From IMG/VR virus record IMGVR_UViG_2737471869_000016: DNA of 37,383 bases; one strand, given 5' to 3'. This document shows positions 17,935 to 37,383 of this stretch, piece after piece. The position numbers and the translations under genes were made by a program. The notes under the pieces were generated by a model, which worked only from the letters and a program-made list of their open reading frames with translations, searched no databases and was not told the DNA's origin. Source of the stretch: a virus. Taxonomy: Duplodnaviria > Heunggongvirae > Uroviricota > Caudoviricetes. Position 1 is the stretch's first letter; each line of letters begins with the position of its first letter.

Positions 17935-19071
17935 TCATAGGTTCATTTTTGTGTCATAACTTTCTATGACCTGAGAAACCACTGCGTGTGATGTCGCTGC
18001 ATTGTGAAAAGCGTAGCGACGGGTCGCCGTGAGTGAATGGTGATTTAGCAGATGGGAAGCGATTGCAATATCCCCGGTCGCCTGTAGTACCCGGGTGGCA
18101 AAGGTACGGCGCAGGTCATGCATCCGCAGGTTATCAATGTTGGCATCCCGACAAATACGGGCAAAGGTTGCACGCGGATATGCCAGAGGGCGGGCATTGT
18201 CGGTTAGTTGTGGAAAAATGTAAGTTTTGCTGAGCATCAGGTCTTGCTGGCACTGGACAACTGCAATGGCTGGAGGTGCAAGTGGGCAGGTGAAAGGGTG
18301 TCCGGACTTTGTATCAGGCAGTATGAGTTGATGCATATCCGGGTGCCAGTACTCCCATTTCAGGGTACATACCTCACCAATACGCATCCCCGTATAAAGA
18401 GCAAGCAATATAGAATCAGCTGCCGGTGTTTGCAGCGCTGTTGCCGCGTCAATAAAGCGCGGGATTTCTGTCGCTGATAGTGTGCGATAGCGAATGTTAT
18501 TTTCTTTCAGATAGCGGACATGTGACATCGGGGAATGTGTGATCCATCCAGCACGTACTGCCAGAGAGCATATTTTGGACAATATTGCGAGGATACGGTT
18601 TACTGTTGACGGACGTAATTTTTCCCGTAAGCCAGCAGCATATTGTTCTAGTTCTCCTGCCGTGATGTCGCGAAGTTGCCGCTTGCCCCAGAACGGGCGA
18701 ACGTAGAGGTTGAGTTTTGACAACTCTGACTGAGGACTCTTTTTATACAACTGCAAATCCGGTAGCCACAGGTCATTGATGGCCTGTTCCACAGTGAATC
18801 GACGGGACTGAACCGCAAGACGATTTTTATCAGCAAGCAGTTTCATCACATGCTGACGGGCATCCTCAACGCAGAGCTGAGGGAACTGACCCAGGGTTTC
18901 ATATATACGCTGATTGTTTATAGTGGTACGAAAGGCCAGCGTGATCCGATTGGGATACACCAGAGCACGCAGGTTTTGGCAGTGAATATCACGGTATTCC
19001 TGACAACCCGTGAGGGGATGTGGAAGTTGGTGAATTGATTTGTTGCTGAAACGCAGATCCAGAATAGGCAT
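17935..19071 (-). CDS. int: Tyrosine site-specific integrase (378 aa)
   Basis: Catalytic motifs LALYTGMRIGEV, HDLRRTFATRVL, LLNHHSLTATRRY (R..HxxR..Y). Confidence 0.9.
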   Translation of the reverse strand: MPILDLRFSNKSIHQLPHPLTGCQEYRDIHCQNLRALVYPNRITLAFRTTINNQRIYETLGQFPQLCVEDARQHVMKLLADKNRLAVQSRRFTVEQAINDLWLPDLQLYKKSPQSELSKLNLYVRPFWGKRQLRDITAGELEQYAAGLREKLRPSTVNRILAILSKICSLAVRAGWITHSPMSHVRYLKENNIRYRTLSATEIPRFIDAATALQTPAADSILLALYTGMRIGEVCTLKWEYWHPDMHQLILPDTKSGHPFTCPLAPPAIAVVQCQQDLMLSKTYIFPQLTDNARPLAYPRATFARICRDANIDNLRMHDLRRTFATRVLQATGDIAIASHLLNHHSLTATRRYAFHNAATSHAVVSQVIESYDTKMNL

Positions 19072-22389: not shown

Positions 22390-23913
22390 ATGAACGACAA
22401 AATCAGTCAGGACACGATCAACAAAGCCCTGTGGGCCGCGTGTGATACGTTCCGTGGCACCATCAGTGCTGATACCTATAAAGACTTTATCCTTACCATG
22501 CTGTTCCTCAAGTACATTTCAGATGTCTGGCAGGATCACTATGACGAATACAAAGAACAGTATGGCGATGCGCCGGAACTGATTGAAGCGATGATGGCCA
22601 ACGAGCGTTTTGTACTGCCAAAAAGTGCCAGCTTTTATGCGCTGTACGAACGCCGCCATGAGCCGGGTAACGGTGAGCGTATCGATCAGGCGCTGCATGC
22701 GATTGAAGAAGCCAACGGCACCAAACTGAAAGATGCCGGGAAAAGCGTGTTCCAGGATATTTCGTTTAACACTGACCGCTTGGGTGAAGAAAAACAGAAG
22801 AACACCATCCTGCGCCAGCTGCTGGAAGACTTTGCCGGTGAAGATCTTAACCTGAAGCCAAGCCGTGTAGGTACGCTGGACGTTATCGGTAACGCTTACG
22901 AATATCTGATTAAAAACTTTGCCGCCAGCGGTGGGCAGAAAGCCGGGGAATTCTATACGCCGCCGGAAGTTTCGGACCTGATTGCAGAACTGCTCGATCC
23001 GCAACCGGGTGATACCATCTGTGACCCTGCCTGTGGTTCTGGTTCGTTGTTAATGAAGTGCGGGCGTAAGATTGTCTCCGGGCATGAAAGCCGTAACTAT
23101 GCTTTGTTCGGTCAGGAAGCGATTGGCTCCACGTGGTCGCTGGCGAAAATGAACATGTTTCTTCACGGCGAAGACAACCACAAAATCGAGTGGGGCGATA
23201 CCATTCGTAACCCGAAGCTACTCGATAAAAATGGCGACCTGATGCTGTTTGATATCGTTACCGCTAACCCGCCGTTCAGTCTGGATAAGTGGGGCCATGA
23301 TGAGGCCGAGAACGATAAGTTTGGTCGTTTCCGTCGCGGTGTACCGCCGAAGACTAAAGGAGATTACGCCTTTATCTCGCATATGATAGAAACCCTGAAA
23401 CCGGGAACGGGTCGTATGGGCGTAGTTGTGCCACACGGTGTGCTTTTCCGTGGCTCCAGCGAAGGTAAAATTCGCCAGAAACTGATCGACGAAAATTTGC
23501 TGGATGCGGTAATTGGTCTGCCGGAAAAACTGTTCTACGGTACGGGGATTCCGGCTGCGATTCTGATTTTCAAAAAGCAGAAAGTGGATGACAAGGTGCT
23601 GTTTATCGACGCCAGCCGTGATTATAAGGCTGGTAAAAATCAGAACCAGCTCAGCGCTGAAAATATCCAGAAGATCGTTAACACCTATCGAGAAGGCGAT
23701 AACGTCGAGAAATACGCCTATCTCGCCAGCCTGAAAGAGATTCAGGACAACGACTATAACCTGAATATTCCGCGCTATGTTGATACCTTTGAGGAAGAGG
23801 AAGAGGTCGATTTGCTGGCCGTGCGTAAAGCGCGAGAGCAACTGAAGGTGGAACTGGCGAAACTGGAAACGGAGATGGCAGGTTATTTGAAGGAGTTAGG
23901 TTATGGTGCCTAA
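22390..23913 (+). CDS. hsdM: Type I restriction-modification system, DNA methyltransferase subunit (507 aa)
   Basis: SAM-binding motif I DPACGSGSLL, EFYTPPEV, catalytic motif IV NPPF (IVTANPPFSL). Confidence 0.95.
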   Translation: MNDKISQDTINKALWAACDTFRGTISADTYKDFILTMLFLKYISDVWQDHYDEYKEQYGDAPELIEAMMANERFVLPKSASFYALYERRHEPGNGERIDQALHAIEEANGTKLKDAGKSVFQDISFNTDRLGEEKQKNTILRQLLEDFAGEDLNLKPSRVGTLDVIGNAYEYLIKNFAASGGQKAGEFYTPPEVSDLIAELLDPQPGDTICDPACGSGSLLMKCGRKIVSGHESRNYALFGQEAIGSTWSLAKMNMFLHGEDNHKIEWGDTIRNPKLLDKNGDLMLFDIVTANPPFSLDKWGHDEAENDKFGRFRRGVPPKTKGDYAFISHMIETLKPGTGRMGVVVPHGVLFRGSSEGKIRQKLIDENLLDAVIGLPEKLFYGTGIPAAILIFKKQKVDDKVLFIDASRDYKAGKNQNQLSAENIQKIVNTYREGDNVEKYAYLASLKEIQDNDYNLNIPRYVDTFEEEEEVDLLAVRKAREQLKVELAKLETEMAGYLKELGYGA

Positions 23914-25135
23914 AGGTTGGATGCTTAAACAGTTGTCGGATATTGTAAAAGAAAAAATATCTTATGGAATTGTTCAGGCGGGACCACATATTCCTAATGG
24001 AATACCTTATATAAAAAGCTCTGACATTAGAGGGGCTATTGATCCTGCGTCACTGCAGAGGACAGCGCCTGAAATACATTATAAGTACAGACGTTCAGCT
24101 GTGCACCCTGGGGATATTATATTCTCCTTGAGAGGCAACATTGGCGAGACAGCCATAGTGCCTTCTAATTTATTAGAAGCGAATTTAACGCAAGGTACAG
24201 CACGGATATCAGTATCTGGTGATCAATGTAATGAGTTTTACCATCAACAATTTGCGATGGATAAATTACGTAATTATATTAATTCCTTGAGCAAAGGGAG
24301 TACATTTAAGGAAATTTCACTAGAAGAGCTACGTAAAGTTAAAGTTCTGTGTGCCCCCCTTCCTGAACAAAAGAAAATTGCTCAAATCCTGTCCACCTGG
24401 GATAAGGCAATTACGGTGACGGAAAAGCTTCTCGTCAACAGCCAGCAGCAGAAAAAAGCCCTGATGCAGCAATTGCTTACCGGGAAAAAACGCCTGCTGG
24501 ATGAGAATGGGGTGAGGTTTAGCACGGAGTGGGAGTTTAAAAGAATAAGTGAAATAGCAACGCGAGTTCAACGTAAAAATGATGCTGCCGAACATCCTAT
24601 TTTAACAATATCATCTTTGTCCGGATTTGTCCGGCAGGATGAGCGTTATAGTCGTTATATGGCGGGAGAAAGTGTGAAAAATTATATCCTGCTTAAAAAA
24701 GGTGAGTTTGCATATAACAAAGGAAACTCAAAAACATACGAGTTCGGATGTATTTTTGACCTTGAAGCATATGAAGCAGGACTGGTACCCCATGTCTATG
24801 TTTGCTTTAGATTAAAAAATGGGCTCAGTCACCGTTATTTTAAATATTTATTTGAGGCTGATTATCTCAAGCCACAGTTAGGGGCGTTAGTTAATACTGG
24901 GGTCCGAAATAATGGTTTATTAAATATCAAACCGACAGAGTTTATGCAAACAAAAGTCCCTGTTCCATGTTTTGAAGAGCAGGAAAGCATCGCTGATATG
25001 TTATATAACTCCAGCAGGACGATACGTGTTCTTCAGGATAAACTCGCCTGCCTGAAAGACGAGAAAAAAGCCCTGATGCAACAGCTACTGACTGGCAAAC
25101 GTCGTGTTAAGGTCGATGAGGCGGTTGCCGTATGA
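23903..25135 (+). CDS. hsdS: Type I restriction-modification system, specificity subunit (410 aa)
   Basis: Duplicated conserved segments KKALMQQLLTGKKRL (central) and KKALMQQLLTGKRRV (C-terminal) separating two target-recognition domains; start overlaps hsdM stop. Confidence 0.9.
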   Translation: MVPKGWMLKQLSDIVKEKISYGIVQAGPHIPNGIPYIKSSDIRGAIDPASLQRTAPEIHYKYRRSAVHPGDIIFSLRGNIGETAIVPSNLLEANLTQGTARISVSGDQCNEFYHQQFAMDKLRNYINSLSKGSTFKEISLEELRKVKVLCAPLPEQKKIAQILSTWDKAITVTEKLLVNSQQQKKALMQQLLTGKKRLLDENGVRFSTEWEFKRISEIATRVQRKNDAAEHPILTISSLSGFVRQDERYSRYMAGESVKNYILLKKGEFAYNKGNSKTYEFGCIFDLEAYEAGLVPHVYVCFRLKNGLSHRYFKYLFEADYLKPQLGALVNTGVRNNGLLNIKPTEFMQTKVPVPCFEEQESIADMLYNSSRTIRVLQDKLACLKDEKKALMQQLLTGKRRVKVDEAVAV

Positions 25136-25815
25136 AACTGACGAAAAGCGGTCCACTGACTGACCGGGAAATCGACTGGCTGGAAGAAATATTAATGAAG
25201 TATGGAATGGATGATTCTGTACTCTGTTTCTCTGAGCTGGATGGATTGCTGACGGCGATTTTATCAGGTCCAAATATGGTTTCACCCAATATCTGGCTGA
25301 GTGCTATTTGGGGAGGAGGCGATTATCATCCGAAATGGTCATCTGAGAGAGAGATGGAGCGTTTTGTCAGTCTGTGTTTTCAGCATATGAACGATATCGC
25401 TGGTTGCCTTTATGACGCCCCTGAACTGTTTGAGCCGATTTTCAATGAGCGTGAGGTAAAGGGGGAAAAATATACCATTGTGGAAGAGTGGTGTTTTGGT
25501 TATATGAAAGGAAAGTCACTGGATGACTGGTCTGGTCTTCCCGGTGAGTTACGGCCTTCTCTGGAAGTGATCGCTCTTCATGGCGTGGAGAAGAATTTTC
25601 CTGTACTTGAGAAAATGACCGGAGAGCAGTTTGAGAAAAGTATTTCCCTTATTCAGCCTGCTGCACTGGCACTTTATCAGTACTGGTTGTCAGTGAGAAT
25701 GTCAGAGGCATCATCCCGGCCTGTTCCAGTGAAGGGGGCAGAAAACATGCCCGGGCGAAATGACCCGTGTCCGTGTGGCAGCGGTAAAAAATTTAAGAAG
25801 TGCTGTCTGCATTGA
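25132..25815 (+). CDS. YecA-like (UPF0149-type) protein with C-terminal SEC-C metal-binding motif (227 aa), embedded in the hsd operon
   Basis: C-terminal GRNDPCPCGSGKKFKKCCLH is a SEC-C zinc-binding motif; overall length and layout resemble E. coli YecA as I recall it; ATGA start/stop overlap with hsdS. Confidence 0.7.
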   Translation: MKLTKSGPLTDREIDWLEEILMKYGMDDSVLCFSELDGLLTAILSGPNMVSPNIWLSAIWGGGDYHPKWSSEREMERFVSLCFQHMNDIAGCLYDAPELFEPIFNEREVKGEKYTIVEEWCFGYMKGKSLDDWSGLPGELRPSLEVIALHGVEKNFPVLEKMTGEQFEKSISLIQPAALALYQYWLSVRMSEASSRPVPVKGAENMPGRNDPCPCGSGKKFKKCCLH

Positions 25816-25864
25816 TGAATCTTCATGTGACCAGTAGCGAGTAGCGCCAGAAAGAAAAGGATTA

Positions 25865-28800
25865 ATGATGAACCAGACGTACACGCCAAAATTCCAGGAA
25901 GAATACAGCGCCAAAATTCCGGCACTGACGTTACTGACCAGCCTCGGCTGGACGTTTTTATCTCCGAAACAGATTATGGATTACCGGGGCTATAAACAGG
26001 ATGAGGTGGTGCTGCGTCCGGTTCTGCGTGAAGAGCTGTCGAAGCGTTCCTTTATGGCGGGTGGCAAAACCTGCCAGTTATCGGAAAAAGCACTGGATAA
26101 CCTGATATCACAGGTCTGTTCTCCGGCGCTCAATGAAGGGCTGCTCAAAGCCAATGAACGGATGTATAACCATCTGCTCTACGGTATCGCCGTCACGGAG
26201 TTTGTCGATGGCAAGAAGGTGAACCCCACCATTGCGCTGATCGACTGGGAACATCCGGAAAATAACCAGTTCCATTTTACCGAAGAATTTACGGTATTGC
26301 GGTCAGGCGGTGTCGAAACCCGCAGGCCGGATATTGTGTGTTTTGTGAATGGTATCCCGCTGGCCGTCATTGAAGCGAAAAGCCCGGCGGGTCACGGCAA
26401 GAAAGGGCCAACCATTGACGAAGGGATATCCCAGAGTATCCGCAATCAGCTCAACGACGAAATCCCGCAGCTGTTTGCTTACAGCCAGATATTACTGTCG
26501 ATTAACGGGCATGACGGGCGCTACGGTACCTGTCATACACCAATGAAATTCTGGGCGGCATGGCGCGAAGAAGATATTACTTACGCGCAGATGTATGCGC
26601 TGCGCAACCATAAGTTATCGACTGAACAAATTCATGCGTTGTTTGATCATCGTCCTTCAGTCGATCTCAAATGGTATCAACAGTTAATCGATGGGGGGGA
26701 ACTGGCAGTCAGCGGGCAGGATAAGCTGCTCATCAGTCTGCTTTCACCGGAACGTCTGCTGGAGATGACCCGCTTCTTCACCCTGTTTGATAAAAAAACC
26801 GGAAAAATTGTTGCCCGCTATCAGCAGGTGTTCGGGATAAAAAGACTGCTGGAACGCATCAGTACCCGCAGACCAGACGGGGGCAGGGAAGGTGGGGTGA
26901 TCTGGCATACCACGGGGTCAGGTAAATCTTACACCATGGTGTTCCTCAGCAAGGCGCTGATTCTTCATGACAGCCTGAAGCGGTGTCGTATCGTGGTGGT
27001 GACGGACCGTATCGATCTTGAAGAACAGCTCAGCAATACCTTTGCATCCGGCGGCGAGTTGGCCGGGAAAAAAGACAAAGCCAATGCAATGGCGACATCC
27101 GGGCAGATGCTGGCGAAACAGATTGGCTCCGGTAAAGAACGCATCATTTTCACCCTAATCCAGAAATTTAATTCAGCGACAAAACTTCCTGAATGCGTCA
27201 ATACCAGCCCCGATATCATCGTTCTGATTGATGAAGGACACCGTAGCCAGGGTGGTGAGAACCATGTGCGAATGAAACTGGCACTGCCGAACGCCGCCTT
27301 TGTAGCATTTACTGGTACGCCATTGCTAAAAGAAGATAAGACCACCAATAAATTCGGACCGATTGTCCACGCTTATACCATGCAGCGAGCGGTAGAAGAT
27401 AAAGCCGTTACACCTTTGCTGTATGAAGAACGTATTCCCGACCTTGAGGTTAACGATCGGGCAATAGATGCCTGGTTTGATCGTATTACCGATGGGTTAA
27501 GCGAAGCGCAAAAAGCCGACCTTAAGCGTAAATATGCCCGTAAAGGTGAGGTTTATAGTGCAGATGATCGCATCCGTCTGATCGCACTCGATATCGCCAC
27601 GCACTTCTCGAAGAATATTGATGAGGGACTGAAAGGCCAGCTTGCCTGCGACAGCAAGATTTCCGCCATCAAATATAAAAAGTATCTTGATGAAGCCGGG
27701 TTGTTTGAGTCAGCTGTAGTTATCAGCCCGCCGGATACCCGGGAAGGGAATACTGAGGTGGATGAAAGCAAACTGCCGGAAGTGACGAAATGGTGGAAAG
27801 ATAACGTCGGCACGCAGGATGAGTCTGTGTATACCCGCAATATCATCAGTCGTTTCGATACCGATGAGAAGCTCAAATTGCTGATAGTCGTTGATAAACT
27901 GCTCACCGGGTTTGATGAGCCGAAGAATACCGTGCTGTATATCGACAAGCCGCTTAAGTCCCACAACCTTATCCAGGCGATTGCGCGGGTGAACCGACTG
28001 CATCCACTGAAAAAGTTCGGTCTGCTGATTGATTATCGCGGTATTCTGGCTGAGCTGGACACGACTATCGGCAAATATCAGGACCTCGCCTCCCGAACTC
28101 AGGGCGGATACGATATCAAAGATATTGACGGGCTGTACAGCGCCATGAGCTCTGAATACAAGCGTCTACCGCATCTGTATAACCAGCTGTGGGCCATATT
28201 TGCCGGTGTTAAAAACAAAAATGATACTGAGCAGTTACGTGCGGTACTGGTGCCTAAAATGGAAGAACGTGACGGAGAGATGGTCGATATCCATCAGAAA
28301 ACCCGTGATGATTTCTTCGAGGCGTTAACGGCCTTCGCCGGATGCCTGAAAGTGGCACTGCAGTCCGCCACCTTCTTCACCGACAAAAGCTTTACGGAAC
28401 AAGACCGAAACCTCTATAAAGAAACCGTAAAACAGATGTCCAGCCTGCGCCAGTGGGCGATGCAGGTCAGTGGAGAGCAGGTCAATTATGACGACTACGC
28501 GGAGCAGGTGAAAAAACTGCTGGATAAGCATGTCACCGGCGTTGAGGTTCGTGAACCGGATGGCGTGTATGAAGTCGGTAAAATGGGCAAGAGCGAAAAG
28601 CCCTCAGAGTGGGACAACAATAAAACCCGCAATGAAACCGACATCATTAAAACCCGCGTGACGAAGATGATTGAGCAGGAATTGCGTGATGACCCGTATG
28701 CTCAGGAGGCATTTTCAAAACTCCTGCGTATGGCTATCGAAGAGGCTGAAAAACTGTTTGACCATCCGCTGAAACAGTACCTTTTGTTCCGTGAATTTGA

Positions 28801-29152
28801 AGAACAGGTTGAAGCCCGTAAGCTCAGCGATATCCCGGATGCACTGGCGGTAAACAAGCATGCTCAGGCGTATTACGGTGTATTTAAAAAAGAGCTACCT
28901 GAGGTTTTTGCGGTAAACGACGTTCAGGTGCAGGATAAGTGGACGAAGCTGGCTTTTGAAGTGGACAACATTATCGTCAAAGCGGTGGCAGAAAACTCCC
29001 TGAACCCCCAGGACATTGAGAAAGTCGTTAAGACAAGTCTGCTACCACTGCTGTTTACGGCCTGCCGGGAAATTGGTGCCGGAATGAATCAGGTTAACCG
29101 TATTGTGGAAACCATCATCCAGATACTGCGCGTTGGTTTGATGAAATCATGA
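25865..29152 (+). CDS. hsdR: Type I restriction enzyme, R (endonuclease/translocase) subunit (1095 aa)
   Basis: Helicase motif I HTTGSGKSYTM, motif II DEAH-type VLIDEGHRSQ; size typical of HsdR. Confidence 0.95.
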   Translation: MMNQTYTPKFQEEYSAKIPALTLLTSLGWTFLSPKQIMDYRGYKQDEVVLRPVLREELSKRSFMAGGKTCQLSEKALDNLISQVCSPALNEGLLKANERMYNHLLYGIAVTEFVDGKKVNPTIALIDWEHPENNQFHFTEEFTVLRSGGVETRRPDIVCFVNGIPLAVIEAKSPAGHGKKGPTIDEGISQSIRNQLNDEIPQLFAYSQILLSINGHDGRYGTCHTPMKFWAAWREEDITYAQMYALRNHKLSTEQIHALFDHRPSVDLKWYQQLIDGGELAVSGQDKLLISLLSPERLLEMTRFFTLFDKKTGKIVARYQQVFGIKRLLERISTRRPDGGREGGVIWHTTGSGKSYTMVFLSKALILHDSLKRCRIVVVTDRIDLEEQLSNTFASGGELAGKKDKANAMATSGQMLAKQIGSGKERIIFTLIQKFNSATKLPECVNTSPDIIVLIDEGHRSQGGENHVRMKLALPNAAFVAFTGTPLLKEDKTTNKFGPIVHAYTMQRAVEDKAVTPLLYEERIPDLEVNDRAIDAWFDRITDGLSEAQKADLKRKYARKGEVYSADDRIRLIALDIATHFSKNIDEGLKGQLACDSKISAIKYKKYLDEAGLFESAVVISPPDTREGNTEVDESKLPEVTKWWKDNVGTQDESVYTRNIISRFDTDEKLKLLIVVDKLLTGFDEPKNTVLYIDKPLKSHNLIQAIARVNRLHPLKKFGLLIDYRGILAELDTTIGKYQDLASRTQGGYDIKDIDGLYSAMSSEYKRLPHLYNQLWAIFAGVKNKNDTEQLRAVLVPKMEERDGEMVDIHQKTRDDFFEALTAFAGCLKVALQSATFFTDKSFTEQDRNLYKETVKQMSSLRQWAMQVSGEQVNYDDYAEQVKKLLDKHVTGVEVREPDGVYEVGKMGKSEKPSEWDNNKTRNETDIIKTRVTKMIEQELRDDPYAQEAFSKLLRMAIEEAEKLFDHPLKQYLLFREFEEQVEARKLSDIPDALAVNKHAQAYYGVFKKELPEVFAVNDVQVQDKWTKLAFEVDNIIVKAVAENSLNPQDIEKVVKTSLLPLLFTACREIGAGMNQVNRIVETIIQILRVGLMKS

Positions 29153-29904
29153 GTGAAAAAGAATCGCCATCAATGAAAGCGTTACGCATTGTCTATGGTG
29201 ATGAGGTCATCGTCGTACAGTGTGCTCCGCGTCAGGTCGTAAAGGGCAGGGTGCTCATCAAGGTTTATCCGGACTGCCGGGTTGTGGCCTCTGTACCGCC
29301 TGAAACACCGGAGCACGAGGTATTGTCTGCGCTGAAAAAACGTGGGCGCTGGATATACCAGCAACTGCGTGATTTCAGGGAGCAACAGACACACATTGTT
29401 CCGCGTCAGTATGTCAGCGGAGAAAGCCATTATTATCTCGGTAAGCAATATCAGTTGAAAGTGACAGAAGACGCTACTGTGCCGCAACGAGTGAAAATGT
29501 TGCGTGGGCGTCTGGAAGTGACTGTCAGACACAAATCGGCAGAAAAGATTAAAGCCTTGCTGGCTGAATGGTATCGGGAACGTGCCAGAGATGTTTTTCA
29601 GCGCAGGCTTGATTTACTGATTCCGCAGACCCTTTGGGTCAGTGAGCGTCCTCCGATACGTCTGCGGGCGATGCAAACGCAATGGGGCAACTGTTCAGCA
29701 AAAGGCTGTCTGACCCTGAATCCATGGCTGGTTAAGGCATCCTCAGAATGTATCGATTATGTTTTGCTACATGAGTTATGCCATGTGGCTGAACACAACC
29801 ACAGCGAGGAGTTTTACCGTCTGATGGGGCAGGTTATGCCGGGCTGGGAAAAGGTTAAGAAGCGACTGGATGGTATGGCTGGGATGTTGTTGGCAGATAT
29901 GTAA
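29149..29904 (+). CDS. HExxH zinc metallohydrolase, YgjP/DUF45-like (251 aa)
   Basis: HELCHVAEHNHS (HExxH plus downstream His); start overlaps hsdR stop. I recall COG1451-type hydrolases being frequently linked to hsdR. Confidence 0.7.
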   Translation: MSEKESPSMKALRIVYGDEVIVVQCAPRQVVKGRVLIKVYPDCRVVASVPPETPEHEVLSALKKRGRWIYQQLRDFREQQTHIVPRQYVSGESHYYLGKQYQLKVTEDATVPQRVKMLRGRLEVTVRHKSAEKIKALLAEWYRERARDVFQRRLDLLIPQTLWVSERPPIRLRAMQTQWGNCSAKGCLTLNPWLVKASSECIDYVLLHELCHVAEHNHSEEFYRLMGQVMPGWEKVKKRLDGMAGMLLADM

Positions 29905-29929
29905 CTTATCAATATGAGTTCTTAAGAGT

Positions 29930-31801
29930 TTGGTCAGTCTCGTTAATGCAGGGAGTATAATAATGAGTAAGTTAGATAATAAAATTGAAGCACGCCATCG
30001 TAATTTGTTTGATGTTCTAAATGCGCAAAAATATACCGTTGATTACTTTCAGCGCGAGTATAGCTGGGGTGAGAAACATATTGAAGAGTTGGTTACAGAC
30101 TTAACATCTGCGTTTCTCAATGAATACACAGTCGGTGATTCTCGGGAGCAGGGTGAAAACTACAATAATTATTACTTAGGACCATTTGTTGTGAGTAGTA
30201 AAGATGGAAAGCGGAGTATTATTGATGGTCAGCAACGACTGACTTCATTAACTTTATTTCTAATTTACCTCCATAATCTTCAGAAAGAACTTAAATATGA
30301 AGAGAAAATAGAATCAATGATTTTCTCCGAGCTACGTGGCAGCAAATCATTCAATATAGTAGTTGAAGACAGAATTCCTTGCATGGAAGCATTGTTTAAT
30401 TTTGGTAGCTATAGTTTAGTTGATGGGGATGATGAGTCAACCCATAACATGGTGGAGAGATATCAGAATATCACAGATGCTTTTCCTGATGAGTTAAAAG
30501 GTCAGGCTTTTCCTTTTTTTATCGACTGGCTTAAGTATAACGTTATTATGGTTGAGATAGTCGCCTATTCAGATGAAAACGCATATACCATCTTTGAGAC
30601 TATGAATGACCGAGGATTGAATCTTACTCCGTCCGAAATGCTTAAAGGTTTTTTACTTTCACGTTTTCATCAGGGAGATAAACGCCAAAAGGCAAATGAA
30701 CTCTGGAAAAAAGCGATGATGGATTTAAAAAGCTATGACAAAGATGAAGACCAACGTTTTTTCCAGTCATGGTTGCGTGCTCAATATGCTGATACAATAC
30801 GCCCGGGTAAAGCTGGTTCAAAAAATGAAGACTTTGAAAAAATAGGTACGCGTTTTCATAGCTGGGTTAGAGATAATCTTCAGGCGGTGGGATTGGACCC
30901 AGATAATGGTGAGACATTCGAACGATTTATACAAAAAAACTTTTTGTTTTATTTGAATGCCTATACACAAATACTGAATGCTGAGAGAGTATTAACGCAC
31001 CAACTGGAATATGTATTTTATATCCACCATTGGGGTATTGCACCTACTTTAAGTTTCCCTTTGATGTTGGCTCCATTAAATGTAGATGACAGTCCTGAGG
31101 CTGTGAAAGCCAAAATAAACCTAGTGGCTCGCTATATTGAAACGTTTGTTGTTCGTCGTTCTGTTAATTTCCGAAAATTCTCTGCCAGTTCTATTCGTTA
31201 CACAATGTACAGTCTTGTTAAAGAGATTCGTGGTAAAAGTTTTGAAGAATTAAAAGATTTATTATCTAAGAAGTTATCCGAAATGCCAGATACTTTTGCA
31301 GGAATGGAAGAGTTTCGTCTCCATGGTCAAAACCATCGTTTTGTGAAGTTTTTGCTTTCTCGTATAACTGCGTGGGTTGAGCAACAAGCCGGAATGAGTA
31401 CAACCTTCATTACATATTATCAGCCAGAACACGGTAAGCCATTTGAAGTCGAGCATATTTGGGCCGATAAATATGAACGTTACTCTGATGAGTTTGAACA
31501 AGAGCACGAATTTAACAATTACAGAAATCGCTTAGGTGATTTGGTTTTATTACCTAGAGGCTCAAACCAGTCATATGGTGATTTGTGTTACGATCAAAAG
31601 CAACCTCATTACATCAAAGAGAATCTCCTGGCTAAATCGTTATGCCCATTGGCATATATGAATAACCCTAATTTCAATCAGTTGAGAAATGTATTCGGAT
31701 TGCCTTTCAAACCACATGATTCATTTAAAAAACAAGATGTCGATGAACGACAGTCTTTGTATAAAATAATTTGTGAGAATATTTGGGACCATAATTTATA
31801 G
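29930..31801 (+). CDS. DUF262/DUF1524 two-domain protein, GmrSD-like putative type IV (modification-dependent) restriction endonuclease (likely start at 29963)
   Basis: N-terminal DUF262/ParB-like motif QREYSW...IIDGQQRLTSL; C-terminal His-Me-finger-like region EVEHIWADKYE ... GDLVLLPRGSNQSYG. Internal Met (MSKLDNK) has a GGGAG SD. Confidence 0.75.
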   Translation: MVSLVNAGSIIMSKLDNKIEARHRNLFDVLNAQKYTVDYFQREYSWGEKHIEELVTDLTSAFLNEYTVGDSREQGENYNNYYLGPFVVSSKDGKRSIIDGQQRLTSLTLFLIYLHNLQKELKYEEKIESMIFSELRGSKSFNIVVEDRIPCMEALFNFGSYSLVDGDDESTHNMVERYQNITDAFPDELKGQAFPFFIDWLKYNVIMVEIVAYSDENAYTIFETMNDRGLNLTPSEMLKGFLLSRFHQGDKRQKANELWKKAMMDLKSYDKDEDQRFFQSWLRAQYADTIRPGKAGSKNEDFEKIGTRFHSWVRDNLQAVGLDPDNGETFERFIQKNFLFYLNAYTQILNAERVLTHQLEYVFYIHHWGIAPTLSFPLMLAPLNVDDSPEAVKAKINLVARYIETFVVRRSVNFRKFSASSIRYTMYSLVKEIRGKSFEELKDLLSKKLSEMPDTFAGMEEFRLHGQNHRFVKFLLSRITAWVEQQAGMSTTFITYYQPEHGKPFEVEHIWADKYERYSDEFEQEHEFNNYRNRLGDLVLLPRGSNQSYGDLCYDQKQPHYIKENLLAKSLCPLAYMNNPNFNQLRNVFGLPFKPHDSFKKQDVDERQSLYKIICENIWDHNL

Positions 31802-31859
31802 CAAAGTTGGGGTGTTAATTAATGTGTAATGGCATCATGATTTTTAAAAGGAGGTTGAA

Positions 31860-32987
31860 TTGCGTTCTGAAACGTTTTTTGTCAAATTTATTGAACAACT
31901 GAAAGGTATTTCGGTTGAGGATGATGTTGAATTCAATTTTTTTGAATTGGGTGGTTCCGGATATCTCGAAAATCCAACTACGGATTTGATGGCTTTGTTT
32001 ATGGGAGCCCAGAAAATGGTGCCGCCATGGTTGCTAAAAGCATTGTTATGTTGCCTGGATGATTCCCTCGATGTTGATGAAATTGATTTCACCTCTCTGG
32101 AATTAATGAGAGAGGCCAGAACAGAGGATGGGAAATATCTTGATATTCTTATCAGACATGATGAATTCATCATAGGTATTGAGCATAAAGTTTTGGCTGA
32201 TACATATAATCCTTTTCCCAGCTATGTAAGTCTCATTGATAGTTACGGCGGCAACAATCAAAATCTATTTCGCTGTATATTAAAGCCTGACGGTAACAGT
32301 GCTAAAGGCGTAGACGGTTGGCAACTGATCAATTATTCATTGCTGCTGGAAACCGCCATTCGACGTCTGGGGTTGGAGATGATGAATCAAGAGTTCAGCA
32401 AGTGGACTGTTTTTTATCAGGAGTTTTTAAGTCATCTTAAAAAATTGAGTGAGGTTAGTATGGATAAGGTATCTGATAAAAATGTGGAGTTTGTCACTGA
32501 AAATTTCTCAGCTTTGATAAAATCGGTTCAACTGCTGGAAATGTACCAAAATGCTATCACCGAGGAAGCTAAATCGGTTGTCTCAGAGGTATTGCCTGAT
32601 ATTCATATTGCAACAGGTATTAATAACTGGAAGGGTTACTATAAAGCAATTCATCTGATGCCGGGATGCTGGGGGCAAGGTAAAACAGGAATTACGTTAG
32701 TTTATCGCCCTTCAGAGGATGGACGAGATGAAGCTGAGTTCTACGTATATGGATGGATACATTCAGATGATTACCCTGAAATTAATGCACTAAAAGAAGA
32801 AATACGAGTTGCTTTAAGTGCTGGTGATTTCATTCCAACCGCTAGCTCTGAGGACTACGAAGTATCAATTACTGGGAAGGGGAAAGTGCTTGAACTGAGT
32901 TTTTGGGGGAACACCAGAAGCAAAAAAGATGCACTGGTTCTTCTTAAGGATATGACGGAGTGGATGGACTCAAAAATAAGAACATAA
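31860..32987 (+). CDS. Putative PD-(D/E)xK nuclease-fold protein (375 aa), TTG start
   Basis: Segment YLDILIRHDEFIIGIEHK fits the D-x(n)-E-x-K pattern; strong SD AAAGGAGG 5 nt upstream of a TTG start; AT-rich gene. Confidence 0.5.
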   Translation: MRSETFFVKFIEQLKGISVEDDVEFNFFELGGSGYLENPTTDLMALFMGAQKMVPPWLLKALLCCLDDSLDVDEIDFTSLELMREARTEDGKYLDILIRHDEFIIGIEHKVLADTYNPFPSYVSLIDSYGGNNQNLFRCILKPDGNSAKGVDGWQLINYSLLLETAIRRLGLEMMNQEFSKWTVFYQEFLSHLKKLSEVSMDKVSDKNVEFVTENFSALIKSVQLLEMYQNAITEEAKSVVSEVLPDIHIATGINNWKGYYKAIHLMPGCWGQGKTGITLVYRPSEDGRDEAEFYVYGWIHSDDYPEINALKEEIRVALSAGDFIPTASSEDYEVSITGKGKVLELSFWGNTRSKKDALVLLKDMTEWMDSKIRT

Positions 32988-33091
32988 ATTAATATGACTG
33001 CGTTATGATGATCTTTTTTAAATTGTGGATTATTAGGCACGAAATTAAAGTGTCGAATAGTCAGATATTGGAATAAAAGGAGAATATTCAA

Positions 33092-34270
33092 ATGATTTAT
33101 CAGTGTGATATTTGCAGTAGAACGACTTTTGAGGTTAATTGTCCCTGGTGTAGTGGAGTTTCGCCTGTAAAAACGTCTGCATGGGGTTCAGCATCATCGA
33201 CCGCACAAGCAATAGGCATACAACGTATGACACCATTGAATCCATCGTTTTATCCCGAATTTCAGTATCGTTCAAAGGGTGTTCTAAAAGATCTATTTGG
33301 GAAAAAGAAAGAGCAAACTCAGCTTAATCAATTGCTTGAAAATGTTCTCAAAAAATACTCCAGTTTAAAAGATCCATATTTTACTAACTTCATTTACACT
33401 TCCAGATTCTCACATAATAATAAATCGGAAGCAGATTACTCAACAGATAATGGTACATACTCCGAATTACAACTTTTCCGTGAGGTGTTGGTCAGAAAAG
33501 GGTTCAATGAGCTTGAGGAGTTACCTGAGCTATTAGATAAATTACTCCTTACCACGTCATTTAACGCTCTTTATTATGGTTTCGCTAAGGAAGTTAAACG
33601 GCATATTAAATCTACACTTACTGAATCCTTGAAGTCATGGATTGAGGAAGCGGGTACCACTTTTCGGGCAGATCTTTCATTATTTCTATTCTATATATGG
33701 AGTAATAATATAGAGTTCTCATCAGTAGAATTCAATGAAAAAGCGGAGACCACACCTGGTGTCCCTTTGGTTTTATTTGATGAAGTTAAAAAATATTTGG
33801 CTGTGTGCGAACGTATTTATTTTGATATTCTGGTTGATAGGTTAGCTACACGCCTTGAGCATTTTAACCCTAATAAATTCGTCACCATGTATTTAGTTGA
33901 TGCAATGGACGGTTTCCAGTTCGAAGATTTCCTTGTGGAAATATTCCAGACTATGGGTTATGACGTCAAAGAAACCAAAAGAACGCAAGATCAGGGTGCA
34001 GATCTTTTCGTCACTCGATTTGGTAAGGATATGGTTATTCAGGCGAAAAATTATTCTGGTTCTGTAGGTAACTCGGCGGTGCAGCAGGTGATCTCTGCTA
34101 AAACGTTCTATGGTTGTGATGAGGCGATGGTTGTGACTAATTCTTACTTCACACGCTCTGCTAAAGAGTTAGCTGAGTCAGCCTTGGTACGTCTGATCGA
34201 TAGGGATGAACTGCAAAAGTATCTGGATGATTACAATCAGAAGATAATCGAAGATTTCCAGTCAAACTAG
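33092..34270 (+). CDS. Zinc-ribbon + Mrr-like (Mrr_cat) restriction-endonuclease-domain protein (392 aa)
   Basis: N-terminal CDICS...CPWCS zinc ribbon; C-terminal region GADLFVTRFGKDMVIQAKNYSGSVGNSAVQQVISAKTFYGCDEAMVVTNSYFTRSAKELAE matches the Mrr catalytic domain pattern (D...QxK). Confidence 0.7.
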   Translation: MIYQCDICSRTTFEVNCPWCSGVSPVKTSAWGSASSTAQAIGIQRMTPLNPSFYPEFQYRSKGVLKDLFGKKKEQTQLNQLLENVLKKYSSLKDPYFTNFIYTSRFSHNNKSEADYSTDNGTYSELQLFREVLVRKGFNELEELPELLDKLLLTTSFNALYYGFAKEVKRHIKSTLTESLKSWIEEAGTTFRADLSLFLFYIWSNNIEFSSVEFNEKAETTPGVPLVLFDEVKKYLAVCERIYFDILVDRLATRLEHFNPNKFVTMYLVDAMDGFQFEDFLVEIFQTMGYDVKETKRTQDQGADLFVTRFGKDMVIQAKNYSGSVGNSAVQQVISAKTFYGCDEAMVVTNSYFTRSAKELAESALVRLIDRDELQKYLDDYNQKIIEDFQSN

Positions 34271-34301
34271 TAACTTTGCAGTCATATAAATATAGCAAAG
34301 G

Positions 34302-34337
34302 ACAGGTAGGCCTCCGTGAGAGGGGGGACTTACCTGT
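34302..34337 (+). terminator. Possible terminator hairpin after the Mrr-like gene
   Basis: ACAGGTAGG-(~18 nt)-CTTACCTGT imperfect inverted repeat followed by GTTGTTCTG (weak U-tract). Confidence 0.3.
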
Positions 34338-34581
34338 GTTGTTCTGAGGTGAGTAAAGCACTTCTGCTCAGGTGGCCAAATTCAGTAACCACTTCATTCA
34401 TATGAGACCTAATGGCCTAGTCATCTAGCCAGAAAGCCATTGAGCCAAGGTTCAGAAGGGCTTTTTGTAAGTGTGCCAATTGGTGGCTCTGAACTTCTGG
34501 TATACTACATGACTGCATGTGTTGTCAGCAAATGCTTTAACAGGTCCTTCAGCTCAGCAAAAGCTCGATTTTTTCATCAAA

Positions 34582-34607
34582 GCCCAATTGGTGATGAAGA
34601 TCACCAA
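34582..34607. promoter_or_regulatory. Candidate operator: palindrome TTGGTGAT-GAAG-ATCACCAA overlapping a CCAATTGG box; a second GCCAATTGGTGG box at 34475..34486
   Basis: Perfect 8-bp inverted repeat with 4-nt spacer ~100 bp upstream of the sigma-factor gene; duplicated palindromic CCAATTGG core; TGGTATACT extended -10-like element between the two boxes. Confidence 0.4.
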
Positions 34608-34665
34608 AAATGATATGTTGCTTATATATACAGTACCAAATTCGATTTTCTCCCTATAAGATAGA

Positions 34666-36759
34666 TTGCATTTCCGCGGGTGTGGTTTACAAGGAAAGGC
34701 TGTCAGCATGCATCGCTCTGTTTCTAAGTTTTATCGCATCCCCCCTTTACTTATTCGGGCGCTAAAAAGCGGGGTCGCCTCCGTGGTGGAGTTTCATCTC
34801 AGCAAGGGATTGCCGAAAGATTCACGAGATTCTCTGGGAAATAGCCCATTGATGATTGCGGCCCAGAATGGGCATTTCGCTCTTTGCGAAATGTTGTTGT
34901 GTGCGGGTGTCGATGTTGAGCATCAAAACAACCTCGGGTTTCGCGCCAGTGACCTCGCGCAGGAGCAAACGCTGCGTGATCTGTTAGCTCGTTATCGGCA
35001 ATCTCCTCCGCCTGACGGGCAGCAACTAGCAGGGGGGCTAGATGATGAGGCAAACGTTGAGCTTGTAATTGAAGCCGATGTCGAAACAGAACCTCCCGAA
35101 ACCGAAGACGCAATGGATTTTATGCAGTGGGATGCTGAAATCGAATCGGAACCCGCCGAAGATAATCTGACATTACGACAGGCTTCCGCTGAGGCTCAGC
35201 AATTATTATCCCGCTATCGCCCGATAGATAACGCTGCTGAGTGGATCGATATAGAACTCTCCCTTCCTGACCCGCCGACGCCAGTTTCTAACTCTCCGCA
35301 AAATTATCCCCATTTCTCAACGTTGCTCACTAGCGCACTGGATGTCGGTCGTATCTCTGTTCGTGACATTCGGTCTGCCGGGGAAGATGATTTCGGCATG
35401 CCGTGGCCTGAATTCCGGCTCAGCGTAGAGGCATTGATCAAGGACTTACCTTTGATTGTGGATGGCGATGATGCTTTCCCGGAAAGTGATGCCTTTGGGG
35501 AATTAGCGGCGAGTGATGTTCTCGAGCCCTGGTTTGACGCTTTCGGTGCATTGCGGCAGTCCGGCATCTTTGAACGTTATCTTGTGGACATTCGCCAATG
35601 GGATGTCGTCGATAAAACAAAGGAAGAGCGACTCGGGCAGCGCATGGATACGGCGCTTATCAACTTGATGACGATCCTGGCGAGATTACCCGAAGCAAAA
35701 TATCTACAGTTGCTGCATCCGAATTGCCTTCCCGCGACATCGCCTGAGATTACTGAAGAGGATGACGACGCGGAAGAAGCGGATGAGGAAATCTCTTCCG
35801 CAGCCGATGACGATGACGCCATCACCTTTAACGATCTGCTCATTCTGCTGAGAAGTGGGAAAGCTGAAGAGTACCAGGATAATCATATCCCTCGCCCGGA
35901 GTACCGTGACCTGCAGCAGATAGTCGAGCGCGCCCAAACGCTCATCCCTGATGAATGCCATAATGTCAGTCTGTATGTCAGTAGTTACAGAGACGCATGG
36001 AAGGGGTTTATCCACGCCAATTTACGTCTTGTGGTCGCGATTGCGAAAAAACACTGCGGGCGAGGATTAGATATCGAGGACCTGATCCAGGAAGGTAATC
36101 TGGGATTGATCAAGGCCGTTGAAAAATTCGACTATCGGCGTGGATTCAAATTCTCTACCTATGCCTCCTGGTGGATCCGCCAGAAGATCAGCCGCGCGAT
36201 TGCCGATCAGGCTCAGCTCATTCGTTTACCCGTTCACTTCTATGAGCATTTCAGGCGCTGGCGGAGCAGTCGGGATCAGTTGCTGCATCGCCAAGGGATA
36301 ACGCCCACCCTCAGACGGTTGCAGGAAATGACCGACCTGCCAGAGCGTCAACTTCTTCAGATGGCTAAATATGAAGAACAGACGGTGCTGATTGGTGATT
36401 TTCATGAAGACGCTCAGGACCGCGAAGCAGCATTGTCGGGAGACGCGCTGCTGACCAGAAGGGATTTCACCAGTGCTCCCGTTCAGTCTCTGGAGCTAAG
36501 AGAACATATTTCATCGGTCCTGAATACGCTGTTGCCACGCGAAACACAGATCATAAAAATGCGTTTTGGCATCGGTATGACGCAAGATTTCACGCTGGAA
36601 GAGGTGGGTAAACAGTTTGATGTCACGCGAGAAAGGATACGTCAGATAGAAGCCAAAGCACTCCGTAAGCTCCGTCATCACAGCCGGGCGTCGAAATTAG
36701 GCGGCTTCGTCGAACAGTGGGAAACCGCGTTGAGCGAGATGCAGGAAGAAGAAGAATGA
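34666..36759 (+). CDS. Sigma-70 family (RpoD-like) sigma factor with N-terminal ankyrin repeat(s) and an acidic linker (likely start at 34708)
   Basis: Ankyrin-repeat signature [31 protein letters not shown]; acidic tract [12 protein letters not shown]; sigma region 2 [29 protein letters not shown]; region 4.2 [40 protein letters not shown], closely resembling RpoD region 4 as I recall it. Confidence 0.8.
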
Positions 36760-37383
36760 CGACCATGCGCCATGCGCCACCGAATGCAGCCATTATGATC
36801 GAAGCTCTGCGAGGGCTCGGCTACAACACCGCCACCGCACTGGCTGATATCATCGACAACAGCATCAGTGCTGGTGCCCGTAAGGTCGATCTGACTTTTC
36901 ACTGGCGTGAGTCGGATTGCTATATTGTGGTTCGGGATAATGGTTGCGGCATGTCGGCCGCTGAACTGGATGTTGCGATGCGGCTGGGGGTCAAAAACCC
37001 GCTGACAAAGCGTCCAGGACACGATCTGGGCCGCTTCGGTCTTGGACTCAAAACCGCCTCCTTTTCGCAATGTCGTCGCCTGACGGTCTTCTCTAAAAAA
37101 GAGGGGATAACGACCATCCTGCGGTGGGATCTGGACATTCTCGCCGCCAGTACGGACGACGGTTGGTATTTGCTTGAAGGTGCTGACCCAGGGAGCCAGG
37201 AGGCGTTAGCAAATGCGGAACCTGACTCCCACGGTACGGTGGTGCTGTGGGACGTTTTAGACCGAATTGTCACCCCCGGCTACGGTGAGAAAGATTTCCT
37301 CAATCTGATGGATGGCGTTGAACAACATCTGGCGATGGTATTTCACCGATTCCTTGAGGGGAACGCTCCCATAAGCGCTAACT
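36756..37383 (+). CDS. GHKL-type (histidine-kinase/HSP90-like) ATPase, N-terminal part, runs off the right edge
   Basis: My own translation from ATG 36756 (ATGA overlap with sigma stop): [41 protein letters not shown]...[10 protein letters not shown]...[12 protein letters not shown], giving the N-box (DIIDNSISA), G1 box (DNGCGM) and G2-like (GRFGLG) motifs. Not in the ORF track because it is edge-truncated. Confidence 0.7.

Follow-up and report, generated by a model that had tools for sequence, protein, structure and literature searches.

A sigma-70-type ankyrin fusion protein, MzaA, encoded at the promoter-proximal end of a probably pipolin-borne mzaABCDE anti-phage operon, and its possible coupling to RNA polymerase

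Introduction

The five-gene operon mzaABCDE reportedly received its name as an anti-phage system from Gao et al. in 2020 (Science 369:1077). Of its products, MzaB is classed as a MORC/MutL-like GHKL ATPase, MzaD as a PD-(D/E)XK nuclease, and MzaE as an AIPR protein. An E. coli clone of the operon is protective against T4, T4(hmC), and T4(C), and purified MzaD cuts phage DNA in vitro without the need for a trigger (Wang et al., bioRxiv 10.1101/2022.06.16.496414). Literature searches on MzaA-E and on sigma/ankyrin/anti-phage retrieved no mechanistic study and no MzaA experiment. Among 5426 complete E. coli genomes, 55 have mzaA-mzaE annotated in RefSeq.

MORC/paraMORC ATPases are also encoded in restriction-modification operons, for which a sigma or ankyrin partner is not mentioned (Iyer, Abhiman and Aravind 2008, PMC2292703). 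These operons and the Mza loci share an ATPase of the HATPase_c_3 type encoded beside nuclease and AIPR genes, and a frequent linkage to genes for a C5-cytosine methylase and Vsr. They differ in that the enterobacterial Mza loci, except for those of Serratia, contain no linked methylase gene.

Here, the end of a viral sequence record (IMG/VR IMGVR_UViG_2737471869_000016), in which a sigma factor gene is followed by an ATPase gene, is compared with these systems. The whole stretch of 37,383 nucleotides that was analysed is referred to as the window.

Identification of the mzaA and mzaB genes

The following features are located at the right end of the window.

34708..36759, + strand: mzaA coding sequence (683 aa), an ankyrin-sigma-70 fusion and first gene of the operon (PADLOC, NCBIfam, RefSeq)
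36756..37370, + strand: mzaB, codons 1-205 only, with a GHKL / MORC-MutL-like ATPase domain; its start overlaps the mzaA stop
37371..37383, no strand assigned: terminal 13 nt of an IS421 (IS4-like) element in mzaB; the window tracks IS421-bearing genomes and leaves intact mzaB here

The open reading frame at 34708-36759 matches the PADLOC MzaA model PDLC02203 over its entire length (1549.9 bits, model positions 1-683 of 683) and the NCBIfam MzaA equivalog NF041931 with 819.2 bits against a cut-off of 800. RefSeq names mzaA and mzaB in genomes that are 100% identical at this locus. The downstream open reading frame matches Pfam HATPase_c_3 with 110.1 bits over all 137 model positions (1-137), and the GHKL boxes DIIDNS, DNGCGM, and GRFGLGLK are readable in its translation. 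It covers positions 1-205 of the 500 positions of the PADLOC MzaB model. Truncation of the protein explains why its NCBIfam MzaB score of 339 bits does not reach the cut-off of 850. By these matches, the two open reading frames can be assigned with hardly any doubt to MzaA and to the start of MzaB, the first and second genes of mzaABCDE. The best explanation of the locus as a whole, which is probably correct, is that it represents the promoter-proximal end of this known operon, present as cargo of a pipolin.

The arrangement had previously been taken as a system not yet described, namely a sigma factor and an ATPase paired on a mobile element. This reading is highly improbable and is rejected, because the family models and annotations match mzaA and mzaB; the pair represents the first two genes of a five-gene system that is named, defined by profile models, annotated in RefSeq, and tested against phages in E. 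coli. What speaks for this reading is that a role of the sigma factor is indeed not described in the literature found. The operon itself is therefore a rediscovery: it has a name, PADLOC and NCBIfam models, and RefSeq annotation, and its protective effect has been shown in E. coli.

The longest reading of the first open reading frame starts with TTG and encompasses 34666-36759, giving the 697-aa protein of the preliminary description. The open reading frame and its domains exist as described; its start is corrected. The ATG at 34708, which gives 683 aa, is almost certainly the true start, because RefSeq places the start there, all homologues open with MHR, and a Shine-Dalgarno sequence, AAGGAAAGG, is located 8 nt upstream of it. 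The overlap of the sigma factor stop codon with the ATPase start codon is confirmed as ATGA at 36756-36759.

Domain organization of MzaA

MzaA is divided into the following parts.

34735..35007, + strand: ankyrin domain (residues 10-100, about three repeats)
35008..35292, + strand: disordered acidic linker and conserved Trp motif (W141, E144, W179-x-D-I-E-x-x-L-P)
35299..35682, + strand: regions like sigma 1.1 (residues ~198-252) and 1.2 (residues ~287-325), by hhalign
35725..35823, + strand: acidic loop at the position of the sigma-70 non-conserved region (15 D/E and 0 K/R in 33 residues, 340-372)
36010..36213, + strand: sigma region 2 (core binding, -10 recognition, melting), Pfam Sigma70_r2, 83.3 bits
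36214..36492, + strand: sigma region 3, divergent, by collinear alignment; H455 and E458 (extended -10) are retained
36517..36678, + strand: sigma region 4 (-35 recognition), Pfam Sigma70_r4, 65.5 bits

Both the repeat signature in the sequence and the fold assign the N-terminal domain to the ankyrin family. In the predicted structure, linker residues 101-138 have a pLDDT below 50, and residues 100-170 contain 20 D/E and 2 K/R. W141, W179, and L186 of the Trp motif are invariant across homologues. Thus the ankyrin module and the acidic tract noted earlier are both present, and residues 340-372 form a second acidic stretch, for which the pLDDT is about 30. One MzaA homologue shows a weak Sigma70_ner match.

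The ankyrin module had been considered to replace the usual sigma factor N-terminus. When the MzaA family is compared with the N-terminus of RpoD by hhalign, MzaA residues 198-323 align collinearly with RpoD residues 4-133 (probability 95.8%, E 7.3e-9), so that the module is an addition and not a replacement. Regions 1.1 and 1.2 are visible only by this profile-profile comparison: a single-sequence Pfam search with MzaA residues 181-341, 101-201, and 505-604 (E <= 10) finds no sigma region 1.1, 1.2, or 3. Residues 201-252 are predicted to form a small folded domain (pLDDT 80-86).

The resemblance of regions 2 and 4 to those of RpoD holds. MzaA shows 47% identity to sigma-70 residues 344-612, and up to ~590 columns are aligned to sigma-70 chains by Foldseek. 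In region 2, the sigma-70 residues D403, Q406, E407, N409, F427, T429, Y430, W433, W434, R436, Q437, and R441 are all retained in MzaA, and the key residues of this region are retained in 56-66 of 66 family members. In region 4, R584, E585, R586, R588, and Q589 are retained in all 66. Mapping of these residues and comparison with the 66 homologues indicate that the core-binding and -10 recognition residues are kept and that the sigma regions are not degenerate. Region 3 is less similar. Only 12 of 58 residues are identical to those of sigma-70 463-520, the MzaA protein of the window has no Pfam Sigma70_r3 match while distant homologues match PF04539, and region 3.2 shows 21% identity to sigma-70 across the family. 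Because region 3.2 is poorly conserved, the initiation properties of MzaA may differ.

By its sequence, MzaA is a complete group-1-type sigma factor (regions 1.1, 1.2, acidic insertion, 2, 3, and 4) with ~195 additional N-terminal residues. It resembles RpoD in the collinear order of these regions and in its -10, extended -10, -35, and core-binding residues. It differs from RpoD in that it alone carries the N-terminal addition (ankyrin domain, acidic linker, and Trp motif), in its divergent region 3 and 14-residue acidic C-terminal tail, and in that its gene is located in a defence operon on a mobile element. MzaA also scores lower than the cut-offs of the RpoD equivalogs (NF004208, 295.8 against 555 bits; TIGR02393, 256.6 against 354 bits).

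Region 4.2 is the best conserved part across the family (77% identity to sigma-70), and the MzaA of the window matches E. coli sigma-70 572-600 at 29 consecutive residues of this region. A recent conversion event with rpoD as donor is ruled out as the source of this identity, because synonymous differences affect 17 of the 29 codons; the identity is therefore maintained by selection. Region 4 of sigma-70 is hijacked by T4 AsiA and MotA and by comparable proteins in other phages. MzaA might accordingly be a guard that resembles sigma-70 and serves as a decoy: it would be bound by these hijackers and activate the MzaB-E nuclease machinery by a signal through its N-terminal module. The selected identity and family-wide conservation of region 4.2, the action of the E. 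coli Mza system on T4, and the conserved coupling to the ATPase gene agree with this possibility, which is nevertheless quite unlikely. Region 4.2 hardly varies among all primary sigma factors, so that a sigma factor doing its ordinary work would be expected to show this identity as well. In addition, the core-binding and -10 residues are conserved to the same degree, although a pure decoy could do without them, variants without region 4 exist, and MzaD cuts DNA in vitro without a trigger.

Leader region upstream of mzaA

Two features are located upstream of mzaA.

34476..34483, + strand: distal CCAATTGG box, in DNA without a counterpart in Citrobacter, Klebsiella, Serratia, and Morganella
34584..34707, + strand: conserved 125-nt mza leader with the proximal CCAATTGG box, an inverted repeat, an invariant TATAAGAT stretch, and the ribosome-binding site

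The leader is nearly invariant across seven genera, and the DNA farther upstream is unrelated. Conservation does not extend to the CCAATTGG boxes. The palindromes mentioned in the preliminary description are both present, as CCAATTGG at 34476 and 34584 and as the GAAG-centred inverted repeat TTGGTGAT-GAAG-ATCACCAA at 34588-34607. Their proposed role in tight control of the operon is weakly supported, because the DNA that contains the distal box is not conserved between genera, and because Pseudescherichia, the closest relative sharing this distal DNA, has a mismatch in both CCAATTGG boxes (its distal version is CCAGTTGG). The window contains three CCAATTGG sequences where 1.16 would be expected, and of 100 shuffles, 11 contain at least three, so that the duplication by itself is not significant; the distal box probably represents a chance occurrence. 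In the inverted repeat, six of the seven genera share the right arm ATCACC and the GAT/ATC core, both of which have diverged in Serratia rubidaea. The left arm varies among genera, the form of the repeat that is conserved with the leader is a weakened version, and arms of a perfect 8 bp are confined to E. coli. A scan of the + strand upstream of mzaA finds no sigma-70 consensus promoter with 9/12 or more matches, and a relaxed scan gives only 7/12 candidates. An Rfam scan of 34200-34800 (E <= 1) gives no match.

MzaA might be nothing but a dedicated transcriptional controller of its operon, like the C proteins of restriction-modification systems. It would accumulate slowly and then switch on mzaBCDE, such that restriction is delayed after transfer to a new host. 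The position of mzaA as the first gene behind a leader that is conserved and whose inverted repeat is conserved in part, the lack of a strong host-type promoter in this leader, the dcm and vsr genes that often flank the system as they do in restriction-modification, and the full conservation of the sigma determinants are consistent with such a controller. It is unlikely, however, because the promoter-reading residues of MzaA are those of the host housekeeping sigma factor, so that MzaA brings no new promoter specificity, and because the ankyrin domain and Trp motif would be left without a role.

Operon context and possible function of MzaA

Among the MzaB-encoding loci with sufficient upstream DNA (72 loci from many phyla), a full ankyrin-sigma gene is located directly upstream of the MzaB gene in 65. 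The mzaA gene is a near-obligatory first gene of the operon across these phyla, and the expectation that the sigma factor and ATPase genes occur together in other genomes is borne out almost without exception. The mzaA stop and mzaB start overlap in 8 of 10 loci examined, by 4 nt in the six enterobacterial ones, and ~50 nt separate the two genes at the two loci on alphaproteobacterial plasmids. A phage collection yields no homologue of the MzaA N-terminus. A plasmid collection yields only three, all distant and located on alphaproteobacterial megaplasmids; the two of these with annotated records both contain the full operon.

The sigma part is not retained in all lineages. At the Vicinamibacterales loci, only the ankyrin, Trp-motif, and 1.1/1.2 parts remain, still abutting mzaB, and at the Pseudomonas loci only a Trp-motif protein remains. 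Coupling to RNA polymerase is therefore not essential for every Mza-like system. Retention of the N-terminal module without regions 2-4 also argues against MzaA as a controller only, as does one mza locus that encodes a BrxR/WYL-type regulator besides the sigma factor.

The puzzle is why a defence operon should encode the DNA-reading and core-binding surfaces of the housekeeping sigma factor in near-perfect form, fused to an ankyrin domain. The complete sigma architecture with family-wide conservation of the sigma-70 contact residues, the natural variants with the N-terminal module only, and the dcm-vsr linkage outside enterobacteria offer three handles on it. A tentative answer is that MzaA links RNA polymerase to the restriction-like machinery of MzaBCDE. 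MzaA would bind core RNA polymerase and recognise housekeeping-type promoters, as its conserved residues suggest, and its N-terminal module would dock onto the MzaB-E machinery. A restriction-like DNA-degrading complex would then be physically tied to RNA polymerase by MzaA, and no separate regulon would be directed. The N-terminal module survives in the lineages that lost regions 2-4, in line with a sigma-independent role of the N-terminus. The switch or sensor redirecting RNA polymerase that the preliminary description suggested is conceivable on these data.

The sigma-70 contact residues kept family-wide and the gene order at 65 of 72 loci are counted for coupling. DNA-reading residues identical to those of the housekeeping sigma factor and a conserved leader without a good sigma-70 promoter are counted against a private regulon. 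The strong gene adjacency is counted against coupling, being found with dedicated regulators as well.

A more specific version of the coupling proposal is doubtful but conceivable: MzaA would be a mimic of the housekeeping sigma factor that wires the nuclease complex to RNA polymerase, and would either detect phage proteins that take over sigma-70 or bring MzaB-E to DNA under transcription from sigma-70-type promoters, possibly with a Dcm-type self mark. Such cytosine methylation, which may distinguish self from non-self, would come from a linked dcm-vsr pair in most phyla and from the chromosomal dcm gene in enterobacteria. If this proposal is true, Mza would be the first defence system to use a sigma factor as a structural or sensing subunit and not as a regulator.

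Pipolin location and disruption of mzaB by IS421

For a genome that is 100% identical to the window over 34300-37383 and has the same island gene lengths, the RefSeq annotation lists, next to tRNA-Leu, a 'DNA polymerase' together with a pair of integrases and a DUF2787 gene. Pfam confirms the integrases on this island and gives no match for the 886-aa polymerase open reading frame. Pipolins are mobile elements encoding the polymerase piPolB, with which two tyrosine recombinases and a DUF2787 gene are expected at this site. Mza has been reported among pipolin cargo at the tRNA-Leu site (PMC11551731), and the island site and Mza cargo of the window agree with this report. As judged from these genes, the mza genes of the window are probably carried by a pipolin that has integrated at tRNA-Leu, between pgsA and yecA; the earlier suggestion that the sigma factor is island-borne is correct.

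The window itself contains mzaA and 205 codons of mzaB, and mzaC-E are known from near-identical genomes. In genomes 99.8-100% identical over 34300-37383, IS421 is followed by the C-terminal part of mzaB and then by mzaC, mzaD, and mzaE. In other E. coli genomes, all five genes are intact by RefSeq annotation and MzaB consists of 500 aa; the MzaB of the window is not intact. Thus the locus resembles described mzaABCDE operons in its full-length match to the MzaA models and in its RefSeq gene names, but differs from them in that mzaB in its lineage is broken by IS421 after codon 205. The mza copy of the window is probably non-functional, because IS421 splits mzaB, and the Mza system of this genome is thus probably dead. 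A split MzaB might in principle still work as two polypeptides.

The IS421 end at 37371-37383 had been overlooked in the preliminary description. RefSeq annotates an IS421 transposase beside the split mzaB in the matching genomes, and at least five IS421-disrupted mzaB copies are present among the RefSeq-annotated E. coli genomes. A query with the junction sequence retrieves only two genomes; other strains carry IS421 at the same site in the opposite orientation.

Identification of mzaA and mzaB

The longest reading frame for mzaA in the ORF listing extends from 34666 to 36759 and encodes 697 residues from a TTG codon. The ATG codon at 34708 (683 residues) is a better start, because it is the RefSeq start, the N-terminus MHR... 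is common to all MzaA homologues, and AAGGAAAGG is located 8 nt upstream of it. The preliminary description reported a long sigma factor gene, an acidic tract, and a stop codon overlapping the start of a GHKL ATPase gene. These sequence observations are confirmed by the ORF listing, by the Pfam matches listed below, by an excess of Asp and Glu over Lys and Arg in MzaA (20 versus 2 at residues 100-170; 15 versus 0 at residues 340-372), and by the mzaA/mzaB overlap ATGA at 36756-36759. The palindromes that it described are also present where it placed them.

Sigma70_r2, in MzaA: 83 bits, above the Pfam cut-off
Sigma70_r4, in MzaA: 65.5 bits, above the Pfam cut-off
Ankyrin models, in MzaA: above the Pfam cut-offs
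HATPase_c_3 (Pfam), in the ORF directly after mzaA: 110 bits

The arrangement had not been recognised as a described system. Novelty finds no support, because mza is already a known system. The window protein matches the PADLOC MzaA model from end to end (1549.9 bits) and passes the NCBIfam MzaA equivalog (819.2 bits against a cut-off of 800). By megablast, the region is present in 55 of 5426 complete E. coli genomes, in every case in the chromosome, and is annotated there as 'mzaA: MZA anti-phage system associated sigma-70 family RNA polymerase sigma factor', with mzaB as the next gene. The name Mza originates, according to papers citing it, with Gao et al. 2020. A clone of E. coli mzaABCDE protects 10^3- to 10^4-fold against T4(C) and T4(hmC) and more weakly against wild-type T4, without growth arrest being seen; purified MzaD cuts DNA, and its mutants show less cutting and less defence (Wang et al., 10.1101/2022.06.16.496414). 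Miller et al. call mzaA just 'a sigma factor', and no study of MzaA function was found in the literature on Mza proteins. The remaining value of the observation lies in the role of the sigma factor in Mza and in the handles on it, namely the complete sigma architecture with its conserved contact residues, the variants without regions 2-4 and the dcm-vsr linkage.

Disruption of mzaB by IS421

Where mzaB is intact, the match of a genome to the window stops 13 nt short of the window end; genomes that match through the last base carry an IS421 (IS4-like) transposase at exactly that point. In the alignment, the window departs from mzaB after base 37370 (codon 205) and then tracks the IS421 end. Beyond IS421, the matching genomes contain the remainder of mzaB, annotated 'hypothetical protein', and then mzaC, D and E. 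The mzaB gene of the window is thus split by IS421, and this mza copy is probably inactive. IS421 occupies this site in at least five of the 55 E. coli loci, in orientations that differ between strains, suggesting either an insertion hot spot or inversion between IS copies.

37371-37383 of the window: IS421 end at the mzaB site
17085-18400 of L001 (L numbers denote fetched mza loci with flanks): IS421 at this site
12085-13400 of L008 and of L009: IS421 at this site

Comparison of MzaA with sigma-70

MzaA is 47% identical to E. coli RpoD across sigma-70 residues 344-612 (BLASTP). The alignment with RpoD proposed in the preliminary description shows by residue mapping that MzaA keeps the core-binding residues D403, Q406, E407 and N409, the -10/melting residues F427, T429, Y430, W433, W434, R436, Q437 and R441, the extended -10 residues H455 and E458, and the -35 residues R584, E585, R586, R588 and Q589. 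The only changes among the checked residues are L402E, Y425F, T440S and S604A. In region 4.2, 29 consecutive residues are identical to sigma-70 572-600. A recent copy of rpoD as the source is ruled out, because 17 of the 29 codons differ, and this identity therefore reflects selection. Region 3 has diverged, matching sigma-70 at only 12 of 58 residues. MzaA is not an orthologue of RpoD, because its scores fall under the RpoD cut-offs.

The N-terminus of the sigma factor was at first thought to be replaced. This is not the case, because regions 1.1 and 1.2 of RpoD align collinearly with the MzaA-family profile (residues 198-323; probability 95.8%, E 7.3e-9). Thus, MzaA is an entire primary-type sigma factor with approximately 195 added residues. 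The structure models (mean pLDDT 64-67) give the following order.

Residues 10-100: ankyrin domain
After the ankyrin domain: acidic linker, disordered
Residues 154-168: helix
Residues 201-252: small domain
Between this domain and the acidic loop: region 1.2 helices
Residues 340-370: acidic loop
After the acidic loop: regions 2-4

Conservation of MzaA

A scan with MzaB, using one genome per species, returned 80 loci (55-99% identity) from Gamma-, Beta- and Alphaproteobacteria, Acidobacteriota, Bacteroidota and other phyla. Co-occurrence of the sigma and ATPase genes, which the preliminary description proposed to survey, was judged at the 72 loci with sufficient upstream DNA. A single ORF with ankyrin, Trp motif (in MzaA of the window W141, E144, W179-x-D-I-E-x-x-L-P) and regions 1.1/1.2, 2, 3 and 4 lies directly upstream of mzaB at 65 of them. 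The sigma-70 contact residues are nearly invariant among 66 full-layout MzaA proteins, with F427, T429, W434, Q437, R451, R584, E585, R586, R588 and Q589 kept in all 66. The mean identity of these proteins to E. coli sigma-70 is 77% in region 4.2 and only 21% in region 3.2. Two Vicinamibacterales loci encode, abutting mzaB, a protein of 329-354 residues that contains ankyrin, Trp motif and regions 1.1/1.2 but not regions 2-4. Three Pseudomonas/Stutzerimonas loci encode a Trp-motif-only protein, followed by vsr and a C5-methylase gene overlapping mzaB.

L083 6000-6989 and L086 5908-6972: Vicinamibacterales short variants
L031 3876-4862, L038 and L081 3601-4875: Pseudomonas/Stutzerimonas variants

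Upstream DNA and possible role of MzaA

A block of approximately 125 nt up to the mzaA ATG is nearly invariant in seven genera, and the sequence further upstream is unrelated, so the mobile unit starts at about 34584. The block begins with an inverted repeat (34588-34607). Six of the seven genera retain its right arm ATCACC and its GAT/ATC core, with drift in the left arm; in Serratia rubidaea this region is diverged. The palindromes had been read as evidence of tight control. This reading is weak: the conserved block does not include the distal CCAATTGG box, perfect 8-bp arms are found only in E. coli among the seven genera, and the number of CCAATTGG boxes in the window is not in significant excess. 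Pseudescherichia has both CCAATTGG-type boxes at the same 108-nt spacing, with one mismatch each. A weak operator in the mzaA leader is possible. Scans of the leader gave neither a good sigma-70 promoter nor a match to an Rfam family.

MzaA may, tentatively, couple the Mza machinery to RNA polymerase: regions 2-4 would place it on the core enzyme at housekeeping-type promoters, and its N-terminal module would hold MzaB-E. MzaA shares its DNA-reading residues with the host sigma factor, so it would have no private regulon, and this argues for a coupling role. The leader also argues for it, because it contains no promoter that MzaA would read better than sigma-70 does. The coupling role is favored further because selection has kept the N-terminal module in loci without regions 2-4. 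Of two rival readings, a C-protein-like controller is unlikely, and a decoy of sigma-70 for sensing anti-sigma proteins of phages is slightly less likely still.

Linkage to cytosine methylation

A C5-cytosine methylase (Dcm-type) gene, a vsr gene or both are present in the fetched flanks of 62 of 91 Mza loci (survey of L004-L016 and L017-L096), mostly against one end of the operon. Both Serratia loci have the methylase gene just downstream of mza. No linked methylase is present at the enterobacterial loci examined from E. coli, Citrobacter, Klebsiella, Enterobacter and Kluyvera. The linkage fits the older view that MORC-type ATPases are parts of restriction-modification systems (PMC2292703). 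This result suggests that the Mza mechanism is restriction-like and keyed to cytosine methylation. A dcm-vsr pair is located on the E. coli K-12 chromosome, and Mza in E. coli may use the host dcm.

The island and its other cargo

In the E. coli genomes carrying it, the island is located between pgsA-tRNA(Gly,Cys,Leu) and yecA, which is the pipolin insertion site, and 'mza' is named as exchangeable pipolin cargo in a published survey (PMC11551731). The island contains two tyrosine recombinases, a RefSeq 'DNA polymerase', a DUF2787 gene, a type I restriction-modification system, a DUF262/HEC-06-like gene, a PDC-S26-like PD-(D/E)XK gene and an Mrr-type endonuclease. In the window, these and the adjoining element are represented as follows.

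7036-7090: tRNA-Leu 3' fragment, identical from the anticodon loop onward, adjoining a prophage-like element
8123-9355 and 17935-19071: tyrosine recombinases
14317-16980, minus strand: ORF of 887 residues, corresponding in size and position to the RefSeq 'DNA polymerase' of a genome with the same island
22390-34270: defence cargo upstream of mza, including the type I restriction-modification system, in which YecA-family and M48 peptidase genes are embedded
29930-31801: DUF262 protein (PADLOC HEC-06/Orf5/SspE-like models)
31860-32987: PD-(D/E)XK protein matching candidate system PDC-S26
33092-34270: 392-residue protein, Mrr_cat nuclease domain at its C-terminus

The 887-residue ORF has no Pfam match. 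Together with the two tyrosine recombinases and the DUF2787 gene annotated in the same-island genome, it is consistent with an enterobacterial pipolin core (piPolB). No complete tRNA is present across the whole window. Positions 1 to approximately 7035 are the end of the prophage-like element, with an integrase and a replication endonuclease annotated. The tRNA-Leu fragment is the boundary between this element and the probable pipolin island, indicating that the two elements are integrated in tandem at the same tRNA.
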